A DNA stretch of 64,000 bases, taken from a virus. The stretch lies in IMG/VR virus record IMGVR_UViG_3300025508_002497, positions 33,164 through 97,163 of that record; one strand, given 5' to 3'. Position numbers and translations under genes: made by a program. Below, piece by piece: positions 1 through 34,500 of this stretch; position 1 is the stretch's first letter, and the number at the start of each line of letters is the position of its first letter. The notes under the pieces were generated by a model. The model was not told where the DNA came from, made no database searches, and was given only the letters and a program-made list of their open reading frames with translations.

Positions 1-374
1 TCAGGCATATACTGAACCGACTTCACGAGTTTATTGGGATCGACCTTTCGTTTGCGTCGAGTGATCTTAGACTTCGCTTCTAGAACTTCAATCAAAGAGT
101 CCAGATATTCGTCTAGTTTCTTCAACTTAGTAGTCGAAAGAAACGAGTAACCTTCCACCAAGTCCTCGTCGGTTTTGTTGATGGCTCCAGTGATCTCACC
201 TCGTACTTCAATGAAGTGATCTCTTAGGAGTTTGATTTCTCTTTTAGTTGGTTTGTAAGACTTGATCGCATTCTCGAAGTTGGGCTTTCTAATCGAACCA
301 CCATCAGAGAGTTTACCCATATAATCGTCCAAGAATCGTTCAAGAATATTACCAAATTCGGTGTCTTGTTTCAT
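1..374 (-). CDS. Conserved hypothetical T4-like phage protein, running off the window edge (partial)
   Basis: Not in the ORF track. ATG at 372-374 overlaps the TAA of the methyltransferase (TAATG). The frame is open to base 1: MKQDTEFGNILERFLDDY...DEDLVEGYSFLST...KRKVDPNKLVKSVQYMP. Confidence 0.75.
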   Translation of the reverse strand, partial: MKQDTEFGNILERFLDDYMGKLSDGGSIRKPNFENAIKSYKPTKREIKLLRDHFIEVRGEITGAINKTDEDLVEGYSFLSTTKLKKLDEYLDSLIEVLEAKSKITRRKRKVDPNKLVKSVQYMP

Positions 375-1945
375 TATGCTTTCCGAAAAACAAAGATAGG
401 TTCATACTTCAAATATCTGCCGTTCACTTGACAGAAGTTTTTGCACTTTGGTTTGCCGTCTTCACCCACGCGGTTCTGACCAGGCATTCCTTCTAGTGCC
501 ATTTTCATTTTGTATTTATATTCTACACCAAGTTCACCCAGTATGTCAATAGAGTCTTGCTCTAAAGGCAGATATTCTCCCTTGATCAATATATCTGCAA
601 TGTTCCATAGGAGATAGCCGCCTGGTCGTAACCATTCAGCACAAGTGGAAAGTGTCGGTCGCAAGAATCCATCACGCCATGACTCATATGAACTTCCATA
701 CTTCTTGTAACTCTGGTTTTCATCTTCACTATAAGCCTCTCGATTAAAATAAGGAGGAGAAGTGAAGACCACATCAATCTCGCCTCTGTGCTTTTGAAAA
801 TCTTTGTCATACTGAATCTCCTCGGAACCTAGTTGGAAGACTTCGTATGTATGTGTGCTTGAAAAGAATGGGTTTGATCTGTATGTTTTTGTGTTGTAAA
901 AATCTGCGAGATCACTATAACGAGAACTTCCATCATTATTAAAGTTATCAGGATTGGGGTCAGTGCCAATGTAATGCAGAGTGCGATCATCACGGACAGC
1001 CATAGCCCCAAGGATACGACCACCCCAGCCACTGCTCGGATCATAGATCTTAATCGGTCTGTCTTTGATGTGGTTAGTGAATCGCTCATACAAGTATTTA
1101 GCAGTCATCGGTGGGAAGTTTACTGCGGGTTGAATGTAGCCGATACGAAACGACTTGAACCCGCCAGGAAAAATCTTCTTACCTTTATCATACAAACGAA
1201 TGGCATAGACAGACTCATCGTCCATGTTGTCGATGTCAAACGTCGAGTGGTGTCGATACTCCAGACGATCGCGGAACTCTTCGACTTCTTCTTTTGTTAA
1301 CTGAAGAATGTTTGTTTGCTCTACTTGATGATAGCCTGTATTCAGTCCTTCTCGGATCTTGACTTGTTCGAGCAGGAAGTCCTTGCCCGCAAACATCGTC
1401 GGATTCTCAAAAAACGCGAGGATCCAATCCCTAGCAGAATCAACAGATACAACGCTATGCTTCCTCGAACGCTTGAGGGTGGAGACAGCATGAGAATAAA
1501 AAGAGTCCCTACGAAAGTGCCGAAGAGAACCTTTATACACTCGATCAAAATAGTCTGGGTTGGCGACAAGATCGTAGATCGAGTGTCCATTGTCTTTCTC
1601 CGTATAGTTGATTCTTGTCTTAAACATATTGTCGAAGAACTGATCGGCTTCAACACCAAGTCGAGACTTGTTGATGATCACATCTTTCGGTGTGTCACTT
1701 AGTTCGTCATCGAACTCAAACTGATGAGCAGGAAACTCCGACATGCGGTTGAACGCAGTAACAATATCCTCTTCGTTCTTTCCCGTTCGAGGAGGACAGC
1801 CGTTGTTGTCCCACGCGGCAGTCAACTCTTCACGAAGTTGAATCACCCAATCTTTGAACTGATCGGGTGTCATCTCTAGAAGGTCTTCAAAGTTTACATT
1901 GACATCACTATTAATGATGGCATCATTTCGTTCGTAAAATCTCAT
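374..1945 (-). CDS. SAM-dependent DNA amino-methyltransferase-like protein (N4-C/N6-A type) with a long N-terminal extension
   Basis: Motif I-like YDPSSGWGGR, YIGTDPN, catalytic motif IV FTSPPYF, and LRPGGYL. Start placed at MRFYERND, which forms an ATGA overlap with the upstream stop. Confidence 0.85.
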   Translation of the reverse strand: MRFYERNDAIINSDVNVNFEDLLEMTPDQFKDWVIQLREELTAAWDNNGCPPRTGKNEEDIVTAFNRMSEFPAHQFEFDDELSDTPKDVIINKSRLGVEADQFFDNMFKTRINYTEKDNGHSIYDLVANPDYFDRVYKGSLRHFRRDSFYSHAVSTLKRSRKHSVVSVDSARDWILAFFENPTMFAGKDFLLEQVKIREGLNTGYHQVEQTNILQLTKEEVEEFRDRLEYRHHSTFDIDNMDDESVYAIRLYDKGKKIFPGGFKSFRIGYIQPAVNFPPMTAKYLYERFTNHIKDRPIKIYDPSSGWGGRILGAMAVRDDRTLHYIGTDPNPDNFNNDGSSRYSDLADFYNTKTYRSNPFFSSTHTYEVFQLGSEEIQYDKDFQKHRGEIDVVFTSPPYFNREAYSEDENQSYKKYGSSYESWRDGFLRPTLSTCAEWLRPGGYLLWNIADILIKGEYLPLEQDSIDILGELGVEYKYKMKMALEGMPGQNRVGEDGKPKCKNFCQVNGRYLKYEPIFVFRKA

Positions 1946-2709
1946 GCTCCTACATTCCAAAAAAGTGCGCCAGGTGACGCATGATCCTTGATAAACTCCC
2001 ACGCTTTTGCGTCGTAGGTTGGTGCGGACGGGAATGGGGGCAACACTTTGGTTGCTTTGTTGAAGGCGTATTTCGACTGGTAGGTCTTAGCCTTTCCGTA
2101 CTCGCCGCTATGTCCCACACGGACGCAGTGAAAGGAGGATCCTTGCCATGCGAGTTGTAGTCCTCTGGTGAGTGTTCCACTTGATCCTACCGTCCAAACT
2201 TCATCTGGACATACATCCATGTTACGAGCCACCCTAATGATGGAAGCGATAACAGTAGGATGGTCAAAACCAATAGGAAGTAATCTGCGATGCTTTGGAT
2301 CTTCTGCAACATAATCTCTTGCCCTTTTTTCGGTCACACTAAGCATCCCGTTTGGGATCCAGTGCATTATAGCACCTGCTTCGATTGCTTGCAACTGATA
2401 AGGGTGTCTTTTTTCGACAGCACGATCTGCCATGAAGATCACCGCCTTCTTGTCATACCTGCCACACAGATGTGCAAGTGAGATCTGAGCATAACCAGTG
2501 GCAGGTGAACTGCCATACACCCACTCATCAATCTCAGGCTGTGACTGGATCAGGTAGTCGGCGAATCGCATCTTCGACCCACCACCGATGAGATCATCAC
2601 GGACGACGAGGATCCCCTCATGCTCCTCCACGATGGGAGCAGGGAGGGAATCCGTCCAATCACCGATCATCTCTAAGTAGTCTTCTGCTGTCTCTGTGAA
2701 TAGACTCAT
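1942..2709 (-). CDS. PLP-dependent fold-type II enzyme (PALP; ACC deaminase/D-cysteine desulfhydrase-like)
   Basis: VVRDDLIGGGSKMR (PLP-lysine motif) and VGSSGTLTRGL (phosphate-binding loop), plus PTYDAKAW and LFWNVG. GGAG SD before MSLFTE. Confidence 0.8.
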   Translation of the reverse strand: MSLFTETAEDYLEMIGDWTDSLPAPIVEEHEGILVVRDDLIGGGSKMRFADYLIQSQPEIDEWVYGSSPATGYAQISLAHLCGRYDKKAVIFMADRAVEKRHPYQLQAIEAGAIMHWIPNGMLSVTEKRARDYVAEDPKHRRLLPIGFDHPTVIASIIRVARNMDVCPDEVWTVGSSGTLTRGLQLAWQGSSFHCVRVGHSGEYGKAKTYQSKYAFNKATKVLPPFPSAPTYDAKAWEFIKDHASPGALFWNVGA

Positions 2710-2719
2710 TTTTCTCCGA

Positions 2720-3538
2720 TCATAGATGATAACATAAGTTCCTACAGATATTAACATTCATATCATAATCATCGGTGGGATCTATTAGTGTCTGAACTTC
2801 ATTACCTACAAACTGCTGTATTCCATTTTTTCTAGCAGAGGCAGAAAAAGTTACATACTCCATTTGAACACCGTCCGTGGTGTAATCTAATCCTTTATGA
2901 ATTTGATCTGTTCTAATCATGTAACACATATGAACTAGATCAACAGCAAAAGTTCCAATAAGAGTTTTATTCCATATTGGTCTAGACATATTCTTATTTT
3001 CTTCTGAACCATCATAGTAACCATTTGAAGAACACCTCAAATAAAATCCTCTAGGAAAAGCACCATCATTATGCACCATCATAGGCGCAAAAATAGGTTT
3101 GTTTTCACGCACACAATACTTTATAGTTTCTGGTGGGAAAAAATTATCCCCATCACAAACGAAGTAATAGTCACACCCAGTATTTAAGGCATGGTACATA
3201 CTTGCATTTCTTATTTTCCCGAGTGTACTGAGTCTAATCCCACCTTCTGCGTACCACGCCTCTTCTCCACCGGGACCAGCCGAAACACCATCTAACTCAT
3301 GAAAATATTCTTCAAGAAAAGTTACCGAACGATACTTTCCAGACTCATCTATTTTTTTACACCAGTCTCTAAGTTTTACGTTGGTGTTATCACTATTGTT
3401 ATTTGTATGAACATAGATCGACAGATATTCAGGATCATAATCAATATTTTCTACGCACTTTAAAAACATGGACAATTTATTTTCCATGTCTCTTACTAGT
3501 ATTGTAATTTGCACTATTGGCATCAATCCTCTAGACAT
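2720..3538 (-). CDS. GT-A fold glycosyltransferase resembling the collagen galactosyltransferase/PLOD N-terminal GT domain
   Basis: YVHTNNNSDNT, KIRNASM, CDYYFVCDGDNF (DxD motif), KPIFAPMM, VDLVHMCYMIR, YVTFSASARKNGI. Confidence 0.75.
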   Translation of the reverse strand: MSRGLMPIVQITILVRDMENKLSMFLKCVENIDYDPEYLSIYVHTNNNSDNTNVKLRDWCKKIDESGKYRSVTFLEEYFHELDGVSAGPGGEEAWYAEGGIRLSTLGKIRNASMYHALNTGCDYYFVCDGDNFFPPETIKYCVRENKPIFAPMMVHNDGAFPRGFYLRCSSNGYYDGSEENKNMSRPIWNKTLIGTFAVDLVHMCYMIRTDQIHKGLDYTTDGVQMEYVTFSASARKNGIQQFVGNEVQTLIDPTDDYDMNVNICRNLCYHL

Positions 3539-3566
3539 CTAACATCTCCATTATATGTTATTATAC

Positions 3567-5288
3567 TCATACTATCTTCAACTTACTAAAGTTATTCTTC
3601 TTATTAAATACCATCATGTTATTAAACTTATCTGCTAACTGATCTGCCTTGTGACTAATAATATAAACATTACATCGAGAGCCTAGGTTATGAAGTAGTT
3701 TCATAAACTCGTCTGTACCCCCTGAATCTAAAGACGAATCAAACACCTCATCAAGAATCAATAAGTTGGTGTTGGCACTGTTCTTCAACCTAGCAATCTC
3801 TCGCCATGTTAATAGTATTGCTAAGTCGATCCTAAGTTTTTCGCCTTCACTGAAACTCATATAACTAAAGTCATCTCGGTGCCTTGACTTGATAGTTTCA
3901 TTGAAGTTTTCGTCTAGATTGAACTGGGCAAAGAAATCCATAACAGTTAGATACTTGTTAATGAGTTTGTTCATGGTTGGGAGGTAGTGTCGGATGATCT
4001 TAGATTTGATCCCACTGTCCTTTAATAGTGCCATAGCATACTCGGCGAGAACCTTTTCCTCTTTTAGTTCTTGCTGCTTCTCTACTTGTTCCTTGCCTTC
4101 CTTCGCAAGATTCTTAAGGATGTCCTTCTCCTTGAGGTTCTCTTTATCGATGGACATGAGCCTACTATACTCTTTCTGGTTCTTCGTGATGTAACTCTGG
4201 TTGGCTCGGATCGTCGTGTTGTGGTTACTAATTTCCTTTTCTTTCTCGCGGATTCGGCCGAGTGTTTCCGTGTACTCATCTAACTTCTTCTCCACAGCAT
4301 CAATGCTTGTTTCATGTTCAACTCGAATTTTATTCTTCTCGTCCTGCTCCTCTGTAATCAACGAACAAATTTTATCCTTATGATCATCGGCGATTGGCTG
4401 ACGACAAGTCGAGCAGTTGTCATTCTCTGTATAGAACTTCATCTCTTTTTCTAGACGATTTAACATCTGCTCAGTCTGATTCAACTTCTTTGTCAGTTCC
4501 TTGAATGTCTTTTTAGTTTCATCCTGTTCACTCAGACCGAGCAACAGGCTGTCAACCTCTACTTGTAGAACCTCAATCTTAGATTCAAGTTCTTTGATGT
4601 TGTCTTCTGTGTTCTTGATGTCGGTCATGATCACTTCGAGGTTGTCTTCGTTTTGTTTCTGTAGCGTCTCGATCATTTTCTTGTGAACAGAAACCTTCTC
4701 CACAATCACTTCGATCTTTTGATCTATAATGCCAATACTTTCCTTCACTTCAGAATATTTACTTTTCATAAGTGTATTCATTGTGGAGAAAATCTGGATA
4801 TCTAGAATGTCCTCGATCACTTCTCTGCGATCTGCGGCAGGTAACTGCATGAAAGGAACGAATGATGAACTACCAAGAATCACCACCTGAGTAAATGACT
4901 TGTAGTTCATCTTCAGGATTTGCTCCTCAAGCATTCGCTGATAGTCTTTCGCCTTGGCATCCTGATGTAGCATTACATCGTTCTTGTAGATCTCAAAGAT
5001 CTTTGGTGCCAGACCACGACGAACCTTGTAGTCATCTTTACCAATCGAGAACTCGACCTCAACCACGCAATGCTTCTGGTTGATGCTGTTGACCAACTGA
5101 GGAATGTTTACCTTACGAAACGGCTTACCAAACAGACCGAATGTAATAGAATCAAGCAGGGCAAAAGACTTACCCTGACCGTTCGATCCTGACACTAGAA
5201 CCATAGAATATTTGTCGAGATATATTTCTGTGAAATAGTTTCCGAAAGAACCGAAGTTCTTAAATCGGACAGTTTTAAATTCAATCAT
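3567..5288 (-). CDS. gp46: Recombination endonuclease ATPase subunit (Rad50/SbcC-like)
   Basis: Walker A GSNGQGKS, coiled coil with CxxC hook (CSTC), signature FSEGEK, Walker B LILDEVFDSSLD. Confidence 0.97.
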   Translation of the reverse strand: MIEFKTVRFKNFGSFGNYFTEIYLDKYSMVLVSGSNGQGKSFALLDSITFGLFGKPFRKVNIPQLVNSINQKHCVVEVEFSIGKDDYKVRRGLAPKIFEIYKNDVMLHQDAKAKDYQRMLEEQILKMNYKSFTQVVILGSSSFVPFMQLPAADRREVIEDILDIQIFSTMNTLMKSKYSEVKESIGIIDQKIEVIVEKVSVHKKMIETLQKQNEDNLEVIMTDIKNTEDNIKELESKIEVLQVEVDSLLLGLSEQDETKKTFKELTKKLNQTEQMLNRLEKEMKFYTENDNCSTCRQPIADDHKDKICSLITEEQDEKNKIRVEHETSIDAVEKKLDEYTETLGRIREKEKEISNHNTTIRANQSYITKNQKEYSRLMSIDKENLKEKDILKNLAKEGKEQVEKQQELKEEKVLAEYAMALLKDSGIKSKIIRHYLPTMNKLINKYLTVMDFFAQFNLDENFNETIKSRHRDDFSYMSFSEGEKLRIDLAILLTWREIARLKNSANTNLLILDEVFDSSLDSGGTDEFMKLLHNLGSRCNVYIISHKADQLADKFNNMMVFNKKNNFSKLKIV

Positions 5289-6340
5289 ACAGACAACGAC
5301 TCCATATACAAATCACGAATCATCAGTTTTAATTTTGTCTTCTGCTCTTGGTTCAGTTCCTTCATATCTTCAACCTCATTCGATATGATTGAAACAGTAT
5401 CCAAAGACAGATCAACGTCCTCTTCAATTTCATCTTCGCCACCGAAGTCTTCGACTACCGTAACATTAGACACTGGTACATCATATAGATTATCAAGGAA
5501 CCTGTCAAACAAATATGGTTTAGTTTTATTGTCAACGAACAACTTGACATAGGCGTTTTTGTATTCGCCGAATGGGAACTTGCTGATGTCAAAGTCTTGG
5601 CTGTCGTCGTATGAGATCTTAAAGAACTTCTTTCGTGGGTTCTCCACAAACTCCAAGTCTCTCGTCTCTGTGTCAAAGACATGAAAGCCTTTTCTGTCGT
5701 TGAGATCACTGAAGGTAATCTGATATTGAGTACCAAGATATGTAACATTGTTCTGGACGCTACGGCTGTGGAAGTGTCCAGACAGAACCATATCGAACCT
5801 TCGCAAAGGTTCATCCGACATACCACCATCAAAAGGCAGTCCTCGCATCACCTCATACCCATTGAGTTCAAAGTGACCACAGATGATGTTGCTCTTTGTA
5901 TTCTTTAGATACTCTAAAGTCTTCTCACGATTCTCGCTGTTTACCCACGGAACCATACCAACTTTTACGCCATCAAATTCTAGATCAATCGGCTGTTGGT
6001 AGATAAAGAAGTTTGAATAACGATCACCGAACAACTCGTTAACCGAGTTAAGATCATTGGTATTCTTATAGAACGTATCATGATTGCCTAGAATACAATG
6101 AACGACGATGCCTTCACGAAGCAGTGGCTCCATGAACTCACTACGAACAGTATTCAGTGTATTGAAGTTGACAAACTTTCGTCTGTCCATAAGATCACCT
6201 AAATGAAGAACAGTATCAATGTTGTTCTCCTTCAAATACGGAAAGAACTGTTCACGAAAAAAGTCCGTGAAGTATTCTAGGAATATTTGACTATCTGATC
6301 TTGCACCCCAATGAGTATCATTTATTATTGCTATCTTCAT
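5285..6340 (-). CDS. gp47: Recombination endonuclease nuclease subunit (Mre11/SbcD-like)
   Basis: Phosphoesterase motifs DTHWG, GDLMDRRK, GNHD, GHFE, SGHFH; adjacent to gp46. Confidence 0.97.
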   Translation of the reverse strand: MKIAIINDTHWGARSDSQIFLEYFTDFFREQFFPYLKENNIDTVLHLGDLMDRRKFVNFNTLNTVRSEFMEPLLREGIVVHCILGNHDTFYKNTNDLNSVNELFGDRYSNFFIYQQPIDLEFDGVKVGMVPWVNSENREKTLEYLKNTKSNIICGHFELNGYEVMRGLPFDGGMSDEPLRRFDMVLSGHFHSRSVQNNVTYLGTQYQITFSDLNDRKGFHVFDTETRDLEFVENPRKKFFKISYDDSQDFDISKFPFGEYKNAYVKLFVDNKTKPYLFDRFLDNLYDVPVSNVTVVEDFGGEDEIEEDVDLSLDTVSIISNEVEDMKELNQEQKTKLKLMIRDLYMESLSV

Positions 6341-31547: not shown

Positions 31548-34500
31548 TTATACAGGTATCGTGCCGCAGTCTACCTCTTCACCAATAGGCTGCTGGTTAT
31601 CCAGACATCCAATACCGTCGCCGTTATAAGTAAATACACTTCCGATCGGCTGATCATGTATTCCATCACAGTTTGAAGTACGAATGTAAAACTGGTTATC
31701 AGACTGCAAGACGTTTGGACTCCCAGAGAACAACGTACTAAGTTGAACGGTTCTGAATCGAGGCGGATCGAGTCCCTGAATAAAGTCTGCTGTTACGTCT
31801 TGACAACATTTATTTTCATCAGGATCATCATTACACCCACCATTCTCTGTGTACAAGTCTGTGATGTCGTCAAAGGGAATCGCACATCTTGTTCCATCTC
31901 CTGTACATAAAAGTATTTTAACATCTGGTTTACATGTACCCGAATCTGGGAATAGACTGAAACTATCTTCATCAAATCCTACAAATGTGTTTGCATCAGG
32001 ACATTCAAATGGACCGCCTCCAGCACTCTCCAGACAGGTGAACGGCGTGATCGTGGCGGAACTACACTGGCCACAGAAACAACATGATTCAGTATTAGCA
32101 CAATCTGTACACTCTACGGACCCTTCAGGTGCTTCGCCAGTTTCTTGTGGTGATTGAGGACCATCAACAATCACTCCCGTAATACCACAAGTATTAAGTA
32201 GATAGTTACCATTACAGTTACCTTGTTCTACATGTACACATCTAGTTTCACCAAGGAACGTAGGAAAACAGCACTTCACTAAGGTTGGTTCTGGACGATC
32301 TACACATGTTTCACATACAGTCTCTCTCGCACCCCATGTACCATTCAGTGTAGATTCACAATAAAACCTACCGATATTATATTGACATATTGGAGGTCCA
32401 GCCGAATCTGGTCTATGACAGCAGTATCCCCAGCCTTCCTGATTCATACAAGTTGCATCAACATCACATGATGTGGTCGTTACTGTATTATCACTACCCG
32501 CGGCCGCCGAAGTATTTTGTGGTCCGTTCACAGTAGAGGTTAAACAAAAACCCTCTTCTCCAATAAGCACGGCATCTGAACAATCATACTGTGCATTTTC
32601 TGTACTGAATGTACCATTCCTATTTGGACCTAGAGGTATTCCCACACAACATGTAAACTCTTGCGGTTGTTCGCATGGGCTTGAAACACAACTTTCTCCT
32701 TGAGCAAACTCTTCTTCATTAATAATAAAAGTTCCTCCAGAGGGGATAACAACACGAGAATCGTTGATCTCTACGATTTCACAGGCACTTTCATCACACA
32801 AACGACCAGTTGGAACAGCACAATCACCAATAAACCATGTTCCATAAATAATGAGGTTTCCATCGATTCGACCACTTAGTTGACACATAGCCTGGGTGGT
32901 TGGATTTTGCTCTGTTCTATAACTTTGGTTTCCATTATCTATGATTTGAAAACAACATCCAACAGGCTCATCGGGGGGACATGATTCCGTGTCTTCGTCT
33001 GCCGGACCGCTCCACACACCTCCGCCGGAGCACTTCTTTTCACATGTATATGAATGTTCATTTTGACCGTTCCCGACTGGTGTGCAACAGTTACCCAAGG
33101 GCTCTCTACCACATTCACAAGCAAGAGACTCACAGATGACATCTGGTTGTGTCCAAGTCCCGCCCTTGTTTCTGCATTCAAATAATCTCAACGGCTCACA
33201 ACCATCGTCAGAACAACACTGTCCGATAGGACAAAGACTTTCTTGTGGTTGTTCTGAACAGTCTGGACCTAAAGTTTCTCCTAGATTGCAAACTAAACGA
33301 TCTACACAACTACCTGTCTGACAGTTATAACATCCTACAGTGGGTGGATCAAATGGTTCTATAACGCTAGGTGTTCCACAAACAGAACATGCCGTTCGTG
33401 TATCACCTTCACGACATAAGACTCTGTTTTGACAATCAGTAACAATCAATCCATACAACTGGTTGTTGTTATTTCCTACACCCTTGTTGAGTCTGATTGT
33501 GGTTTCAACTCTGTCTTCTCTGGATCCTGTTCTAACGGGCAAATTATTATCACAGTTCCCGCTGTAACAAAGACCAAGATTATTTGTGCTACCAACTAGT
33601 GATTCATTTGGATTATTTGGATTATCAATACCATAAATCAATGCGGTGTATCTTGCGGTGTCGTTACTACTACCAATAGTAGAAGGTAAATCCCGTTGAC
33701 CTGCTATACATGAACCAGTGAGGGGACATAGAACTGGAACGAAACTAAACGCCAAACCACCAGGCACCTGTCTCTTATTGGGTGTTGTGGGATCACTATC
33801 ATCACTATCATTCAATAAGTTTGGATGTTCTACTTTATCTCTAAAGTTCGCATAAAGAAGATCCTTAAAATCACCGGTGATGTTCTCCTCACAGTTTGGA
33901 ACTTCGTTTCGTGTGTTCTCGATTCTAGTTCTGCATTCGTTAGAAGAGTCTTTAAAGTTTTGTACATCTTGTGGATTGAATCTACCAAAGTTTTGTACTT
34001 GGCCTTCAACATCTTCCCACCGAACATCATTACCACAGAATGGATTATGATTACTACATTCTCCCGCATAAACCTCATCGAAGTATGCTTCGTAAAGAAG
34101 AGCGGCATTTTCATCCCACGCACCACCACGCTTACACCACTTTAATGCTTCTGCCGTGTTGTCACCAATACTCATTTGGTAAGCACAGAAAGAGTTCAAA
34201 CAAGGTTCACAAGAAAAGACAGGTTTAAATGTATCTGTTGGTGTAGCGTTTGGCCAACTAGTTGCTGTTCCTGGCCAAACTTTAATATTTTCATTACAAT
34301 CTGGACTTCCTCCACATGGGAAGTAGTTATCTTCAGGCCATTCTGTTTGTTCACATGTTGATTCTGGGTTATCATTCAGACGAACTATAAAATCTTCACT
34401 GAGTCCCTTTCCACACAAACCAGTAGTGTGAGTAAAGAAACAATCATCAATAGTTTGATCATACTGACTGACACCCTCACAAACACTATCATCGTTACAT

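Follow-up and report, generated by a model that had tools for sequence, protein, structure and literature searches.

The window analysed here, a stretch of 64,000 nucleotides (positions 33,164 to 97,163 of IMG/VR record IMGVR_UViG_3300025508_002497), belongs to a 97 kb contig, approximately 54% complete, of an uncultured marine T4-like myovirus. Towards its start it carries, in minus-strand order, gp55, gp47, gp46, a glycosyltransferase (GT), a pyridoxal phosphate (PLP)-dependent enzyme (PALP), an S-adenosylmethionine (SAM)-dependent transferase of the N6_N4 methyltransferase type (MTase) and a conserved gene of 233 aa. We are confident that PALP and MTase constitute a two-gene module and that the GT beside them is an unrelated insert. 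The features, in window coordinates, are the following.

374..1945, minus strand: MTase, whole gene (523 aa), an N6_N4_Mtase domain with an N-terminal extension
374..1135, minus strand: SAM-dependent exocyclic-amine (N6_N4-type) transferase domain of MTase (PF01555), residues ~271-523
1136..1945, minus strand: conserved N-terminal domain of MTase, residues 1-270, the presumed target-recognition or DNA-binding part
1942..2709, minus strand: PALP, a compact fold-type II PLP enzyme of 255 aa, M6 gp52 family (phrog_7093)
2710..2719, minus strand: 10-nt spacer tcGGAGaaaa between GT and PALP, with a GGAG ribosome-binding site, as read in the sequence
2720..3538, minus strand: GT-A glycosyltransferase of 272 aa with a DGD (DxD) motif, matching Pfam Anp1, COLGALT1 and LH3
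3567..5288, minus strand: gp46, SbcC-like recombination nuclease subunit, a conserved anchor upstream of the cassette and outside it
3..374, minus strand: start of the conserved 233-aa gene (phrog_11903), TAATG-coupled to MTase

An earlier, sequence-only reading of the window had described three packed enzyme genes following gp46, with a 10-nt gap containing a Shine-Dalgarno sequence and then ATGA and TAATG overlaps. All three junctions are present, PALP and MTase overlapping in ATGA at 1945-1942 and MTase and the 233-aa gene in TAATG at 376-372, but the gap was misplaced: it lies between GT (stop TGA at 2722-2720) and PALP (ATG at 2709), whereas 28 nt containing GGAG separate the gp46 stop from the GT start. 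The family assignments made in that reading (a GT-A glycosyltransferase, a PALP-type enzyme, and an amino-MTase with a ~270-aa N-terminal extension) agree with our matches to Anp1, to phrog_7093 and 1J0A, and to PF01555, respectively. These are real genes and not chance open reading frames (ORFs), since PALP and MTase have hundreds of homologues or more (990 and 3764) and the GT has 40. Searches of NCBIfam returned 0 matches for any of the three.

A full-length MTase homologue lies directly after PALP in all 15 of the related IMG/VR loci that include enough downstream flank, and a search for longer relatives of PALP identified 38 proteins in which PALP and MTase are fused. Some of these carry MTase followed by PALP (~680-830 aa); others, one of them from Nitrosomonas nitrosa, carry MTase, an Asp/Asn beta-hydroxylase-type 2-oxoglutarate (2OG) oxygenase (PF05118) and PALP, in that order (~1050-1190 aa); in a third arrangement, exemplified by gp1 of Erythrobacter phage R6L, PALP lies inside a ParB-MTase, in the stretch that separates motifs I and IV. 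Microcystis phage Mae-JY30 encodes ParB, MTase and PALP as three consecutive genes, a split form of the nested fusion, and a fusion with PALP preceding MTase also exists (P0277). Fusion P0130 of Nitrosomonas nitrosa aligns through its first 459 aa with residues 25-522 of the window's MTase (E 1e-64), a span that takes in the N-terminal extension, and its PALP part shows 50% identity to the window's PALP. Motif IV reads SPPY, CPPY or CPPF in 36 of the 38 fusions and never D/NPPY, the other two showing none, and the PLP lysine, the RDD motif and the SSGT loop are retained in the aligned fusions. This strict adjacency, together with repeated fusion, indicates that PALP and MTase act together. The proposal that all three enzymes cooperate thus holds for these two and fails for the GT, which is found in only 2 of 19 loci (see below). 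No paper on the PALP-MTase pair was found in our literature searches.

In R6L and Mae-JY30, as in the window, PALP is linked to an (S/C)PPY amine-MTase and the catalytic residues are the same; their MTases however belong to another subfamily (with a ParB N-terminal domain, a CPPY motif and weak similarity to the window's MTase), and PALP is nested in the MTase or follows it. The published description of R6L (vB_EliS-R6L) annotates gp1 just as 'DNA modification methylase' and leaves the PALP part unmentioned (PMC5463345). Some long fusions (P0164, P0165, P0163) combine the MTase-PALP pair with a poxvirus-type cap 2'-O-methyltransferase (PARP_regulatory) or a sulfotransferase domain, which hints at a use outside phage DNA, possibly in giant viruses.

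The distribution of the GT was read in 19 IMG/VR loci encoding a close relative of PALP, and only two of these, the near-identical strains L004 and L006, contain it; a search of viral contigs with the GT likewise matched these two strains alone. In three GT-less loci (L009, L010 and L015) gp46 and gp47 are 99.7% identical to those of the window, as is gp46 of L004, and in the GT-less relatives PALP starts within the gp46 stop codon (ATGA), a coupling which the window's spacer replaces. Since sisters with 99.7% identical gp46 retain this coupling, the GT with its two short linkers is a clean insertion at the gp46/PALP junction; it is recent and unrelated to the PALP-MTase module, contrary to the sequence-only reading, which had counted it as part of the set. 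The tight packing and common orientation of GT, PALP and MTase in the window would suit a three-gene pathway in which the GT sugar-coats the modified base, as would the T4 DNA glucosyltransferase gene, whose comparable location lies between genes 55 and 47. Such a pathway is however largely refuted by the absence of the GT from the closest relatives, and we consider it very improbable: at this position other phages carry genes for homing nucleases or for sugar enzymes, the GC contents of GT, PALP and MTase are unlike (35.3%, 50.0% and 43.3%, with a window mean of 40.9%), and the GT itself resembles protein glycosyltransferases, in a genome that encodes collagen-like ORFs and a GT25-family protein. 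PALP too is a GC outlier (50% vs 41%).

The GT matches Pfam Anp1 at 1.9e-9 (37.8 bits, cut-off 28.8), and its closest solved relatives are the N-terminal GT-A domain of human procollagen galactosyltransferase 1 (COLGALT1; E 3e-14 over residues 7-210, DGD aligned with DAD) and the glycosyltransferase domain of LH3 (E ~1e-5), although unlike these proteins it consists of a single domain of 272 aa. Its homologues carry PF03452 and PF13704, while no PHROG family was matched at E up to 0.01 and no tblastn match was found among 50,697 phage records. A GT25-family gene lies in the same contig (G000:C1:23075-23695, outside the window and upstream of its start), as do collagen-like ORFs of up to 1279 aa (G000:C1:27880-32801, also outside the window, the nearest beginning ~1.4 kb beyond the window start); these are a candidate partner and a candidate substrate for a COLGALT-like GT. 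Because of this combination of COLGALT1/LH3 likeness, collagen-like ORFs and a GT25 gene, a protein acceptor is the better guess, and the GT is predicted to be a protein glycosyltransferase acting probably on the collagen-like fibres of the phage. The GT-less sisters have a 362-aa gene where the window's phage has its first collagen-like fibre gene, and the GT may not be bound strictly to fibres.

The junction behind gp46 is an insertion hotspot, and the window's GT occupies the same place as the cargo of other phages. This includes an unidentified gene of ~155 aa (L013:5534-6000) and, across L120:5601-6008, L125:4993-5334 and L139:4108-5996, an endonuclease VII-type homing nuclease, a staphylococcal-nuclease gene and a pair encoding an NAD-epimerase and a GDP-mannose dehydratase.

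By both sequence and fold, PALP is a member of the M6 gp52 family. It matches phrog_7093, to which the PLP enzyme of Pseudomonas phages in the M6/PAE1/LKO4 group belongs, at 8.5e-36 over residues 30-255, compared to only 1.3e-3 for Pfam, and tblastn with PALP matched 33 Yuavirus-type records at ~25% identity. A single-sequence search of the PDB returned nothing real; the AlphaFold model of PALP (pLDDT 89) is best matched by the ACC-deaminase homologue 1J0A (TM 0.81). The motif GGSKMR contains the catalytic lysine, K46; SSGT forms the phosphate loop, and PFPS..YDAKAW..FWN serves as C-terminal signature. K46, S177 and G178 are invariant in one alignment (A1), K46 and G175 in another (A3), and PALP and the PAE1/M6-type enzyme have in common K46, the SSGT loop and PFP..YDAKAW..FWN. 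The PALP parts of R6L gp1 and Mae-JY30 are closer, with 42-44% identity. M6 gp52 and gp226 of Salmonella phage ViI are the proven, and sole known, decarboxylases of amino acids attached to DNA bases, namely to thymine (Lee et al., NAR 2021/22, PMC8989533). They resemble the window's PALP in family, in the compact fold-type II architecture, in the position of the lysine, in the C-terminal signature and in having 1J0A as the best template (PMC8989533). The kinship with DNA-adduct decarboxylases assumed in the sequence-only reading is thus well founded, and by analogy with the family PALP may act as a decarboxylase on an amino acid tethered to DNA.

The partner of PALP is nevertheless different, being a SAM-dependent amine transferase in place of the 5-hydroxymethyldeoxyuridine (5-hmdU) kinase, amino-acid:DNA transferase and radical-SAM isomerase of M6 and ViI. 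It could be argued, from the kinship of PALP with M6 gp52 and because completeness reaches only 32-54% in the window's contig and in every T4-like relative examined, that PALP takes part in thymidine hypermodification of the M6/ViI kind, with the hydroxymethylase, the 5-hmdU kinase and the amino-acid:DNA transferase encoded elsewhere in the genome and MTase a mere neighbour. However the 97 kb contig (~54% complete) was found to contain neither a thymidylate-synthase-like gene nor any homologue of the transferase, the kinase or the radical-SAM isomerase of the M6 type; five related contigs bearing PALP (the T4-like ones 32-54% complete) contain no thymidylate-synthase-like gene and no transferase homologue; and the complete genomes of R6L and Mae-JY30 contain neither an M6-type amino-acid:DNA transferase (aGPT-Pplase) nor a 5-hmdU kinase, both of which score in the positive control PAE1. 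As mere neighbourhood would also leave the 38 MTase fusions unexplained, we give this explanation little credence, and the kinase and the transferase, which the sequence-only reading had described as not visible in the window, are not partners of the module. Since its partner differs and the kinase and transferase are absent, PALP is expected to differ from the M6 and ViI enzymes in both substrate and base, and since it belongs to their family while the context of their pathway is missing, we regard the module as a new, methyltransferase-led variant and not as the known thymidine pathway.

A role for PALP as sulfur donor to a DndC-like PAPS reductase was also considered but not adopted for the window, as its contig contains no PAPS_reduct gene and PALP is nearer to the M6 decarboxylase than to desulfhydrases. 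Genes of the PAPS-reductase type (PP-loop) do occur between PALP and MTase in two contigs of metagenome-assembled genomes (MAGs; L035:2929-5964 and L036:6527-9587), and in Erythrobacter phage R6L a PAPS reductase lies ~1.4 kb from the fusion gene, so this gene may be a third, optional component of the module.

The MTase matches N6_N4_Mtase (PF01555) with 27.4 bits (cut-off 26.7). Motif I (DPSSGWGGR) precedes motif IV (TSPPY), both being invariant or nearly so in 39 family members, and residues D302, G306, R310, D329, S396 and Y399 are invariant; from the SPPY motif, the target points to N4 of cytosine. In the model (pLDDT 92.5) the C-terminal half has a class I methyltransferase fold, its closest structures being Trm11, TrmN, Trm14 and METTL5 (Z 15-16); Foldseek returned generic class I methyltransferases only, and a profile search of the PDB with the MTase family gave no match. 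Conservation of the N-terminal ~270 aa extends to all of the family and to the N-terminal part of the Nitrosomonas fusion P0130, but these residues have no Pfam or PHROG match, and their Atlas matches all score <0.85. A degenerate Asp/Asn-hydroxylase domain within this extension was considered and rejected, since the extension aligns with the N-terminal part of the fusions, upstream of the hydroxylase domain. The family is abundant (at least 569 IMG/VR loci and 3764 representative clusters), and in T4-like contigs it always lies behind gp46. Bacterial homologues adjoin type III or Eco57I-type restriction-modification (R-M) genes or an integrase, which supports a role of MTase on DNA. In three of the bacterial loci, from Limnohabitans (L043), Devosia (L045) and an alphaproteobacterial MAG (L039), an upstream gene for a partner of ~345 aa overlaps the full-length MTase homologue; in Devosia this partner matches DUF3102. 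Type III R-M genes, an enzyme of the Eco57I type or an integrase lie next to these loci.

As the top structural matches are tRNA and rRNA amine-methyltransferases, the pair might instead modify RNA (tRNA, rRNA or mRNA caps) or some other non-DNA substrate, and the poxvirus-type cap 2'-O-methyltransferase domain of fusion P0164 and the JGI label TrmN6 on some members would fit this too. We consider an RNA target unlikely: the MTase sits in a DNA replication and recombination block behind gp46, related forms are fused to ParB, the bacterial homologues occur in R-M or mobile islands, and the PLP relatives act on DNA (PMC8989533).

A PLP enzyme needs a substrate with a free primary amine beside a carboxylate. 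The MTase reaction would offer two candidates, a 3-amino-3-carboxypropyl (ACP) adduct on the base or the by-product S-adenosylhomocysteine (SAH). SAM is the only evident source of an amino-acid moiety, because the complete R6L and Mae-JY30 genomes have neither transferase nor kinase. Four observations speak for the ACP adduct: the characterised relatives of PALP act on DNA-tethered amino acids (PMC8989533), in some MTases PALP lies within the catalytic half, many fusions add the PF05118 hydroxylase, of a class acting on amino-acid side chains, and microcin C gives a biochemical precedent (PMC10491745). We tentatively propose, as a possibility well short of an even chance, that the SPPY enzyme places the ACP end of SAM on a base amine and that the PLP enzyme decarboxylates the product, as do MccD and MccE. 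In this scheme we infer DNA as the target, the base, the transferred group and the decarboxylation alike.

Under this proposal the 523-aa protein would act by itself as a SAM-dependent transferase that targets an exocyclic amine of a base; the PLP enzyme would be an optional accessory, occurring only alongside such a transferase. The transferase would move the 3-amino-3-carboxypropyl end of SAM, and not the methyl group, onto the base; the PLP enzyme would form a Schiff base with the free alpha-amine of the DNA-borne side chain and take off CO2, leaving a positively charged 3-aminopropyl group. In a sub-variant the order would be reversed, PLP-dependent decarboxylation of SAM preceding aminopropyl transfer, while in phages with the transferase only the carboxylated adduct would be the end product. 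The role would likely be protection of phage DNA against host nucleases. More speculatively, a large group of marine T4-like phages, and unrelated siphoviruses such as R6L, might bear a SAM-derived base side chain: phages with the transferase alone would have N4-(3-amino-3-carboxypropyl)cytosine, those that also encode the PLP enzyme N4-(3-aminopropyl)cytosine, and those with a fused oxygenase hydroxylated forms; we would rate this specific set of products as doubtful.

In microcin C synthesis MccD, which has the methyltransferase fold, acts as a SAM:ACP transferase, and the PLP domain of MccE converts the ACP group into aminopropyl by decarboxylation; the reverse order via decarboxy-SAM is also under discussion (PMC10491745). 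The likeness is by analogy only, and consists in the pairing or fusion of a methyltransferase-fold enzyme and a PLP decarboxylase, in the proposed installation on a nucleotide-type acceptor of a 3-aminopropyl group derived from SAM, and in the same ambiguity of order; the fold-search matches include no specific sequence or fold relation to MccD, and the acceptor is a phosphoramidate on a peptide-nucleotide and not DNA. The MccE decarboxylase also belongs to another PLP fold class than PALP. A further parallel is found in wybutosine, in which Tyw2 carries out ACP transfer and Tyw5 then hydroxylates the side chain.

Several observations weigh against ACP transfer. The literature searched yielded no DNA base modified with ACP or aminopropyl, the identity between PALP and the M6-type enzyme is only ~25%, and with a contig only ~54% complete partners may lie elsewhere. 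The motifs of MTase are ordinary, with no sequence sign that SAM is bound for ACP transfer, and its best structural matches are RNA amine-methyltransferases (Trm11, TrmN, METTL5); no ACP transferase of the MccD, Tyw2 or CntL type is among the Foldseek or fold-search matches listed for it. The known ACP-transferase families are mutually unrelated (PMC10491745), so the proposal concerns the working of the pair rather than membership of one of these families.

The dependence between the two genes also runs one way. Co-occurrence across T4-like contigs had been put forward in the sequence-only reading as a check, and PALP indeed always comes with MTase (15/15), but the converse does not hold: among 66 distinct full-length MTases in viral contigs with enough upstream sequence, PALP lies upstream of 31 and is missing from 35, most of which abut gp46 or are parted from it by a homing-nuclease gene alone. 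The presence of PALP, mapped on the MTase tree, needs ~7 changes, at least 4 of them forced, and no alignment column separates partnered from unpartnered MTases. L128 and L131 encode nearly identical MTases behind unrelated upstream DNA, one with PALP and one without, and most full-length homologues in bacterial genomes have no PALP within 8 kb. Because about half of the viral MTases are unpartnered and the two groups are indistinguishable in sequence, we regard MTase as a complete enzyme on its own and PALP as an add-on that needs it; the MTase may thus perform simple methylation.

This brings in an explanation that we judge about as likely as ACP transfer, and hence also only tentative, namely plain N4-cytosine (or N6-adenine) DNA methylation, sustained over a large genome by a PLP helper working on the cofactor side, for example in the breakdown of SAH or the turnover of SAM-derived amino acids. 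It would account for the same MTase, with canonical motifs and no discriminating residue, being kept equally with and without PALP; the finding that PALP never occurs without MTase, in the loci with flank and in the fusions, fits a by-product-directed helper too; and a PLP enzyme could plausibly use SAH, in which an amino acid is joined to a nucleoside. Against such a helper, hosts already own nucleosidases or hydrolases for SAH or methylthioadenosine (MTA). The nearest characterised relatives of PALP, moreover, act on DNA-bound adducts and not on free metabolites (PMC8989533). A helper role would also leave unexplained both the nesting of PALP between motifs I and IV and the amino-acid-type hydroxylase of the triple fusions.

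To our knowledge, every enzymatic pathway described for bulky bases in phage DNA begins with a hydroxymethyl-pyrimidine or a deazaguanine. If the ACP proposal is correct, this would be the first case of ACP or aminopropyl groups on DNA, reached by a hypermodification route that is led by a methyltransferase and is independent of 5-hydroxymethylpyrimidines, and this new DNA chemistry would account for two genes whose pairing is very common in ocean viromes (at least 569 IMG/VR transferase loci and 990 PLP relatives). It would offer a potential tool for sequence-specific installation of a primary amine on DNA, and would bear on the reading of modified phage DNA in nanopore and SMRT metagenomics and on restriction evasion. 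If the pair merely methylates, it would be an ordinary orphan methylase with an odd helper. The cultured carriers, Erythrobacter phages R6L and ZS04 and Microcystis phage Mae-JY30, make the chemistry directly testable.

Among the neighbouring genes, gp46 of the window shares 47-48% identity with gp46 of Methylophilales phage Melnitz and of cyanomyophages, and the 233-aa gene (phrog_11903) is the usual gene after MTase in relatives. A megablast search of phage records with the region returned no match; promoter-like sites were not above chance in our scan of the region, and terminator-like sites were modestly above chance. In one T4-like contig (L191:2922-5190) the space from gp46 to the large MTase holds a second N6_N4 MTase of small size, together with a divergent PALP enzyme of 328 aa and a protein with an HD domain. 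In a comparison of L005 and L007 with window positions 1-6340, the block comprising PALP, MTase and the downstream gene is 95-99% identical at the protein level whereas gp46 and gp47 are only 49-54% identical, which implies that divergent T4-like phages have recently exchanged this block laterally.

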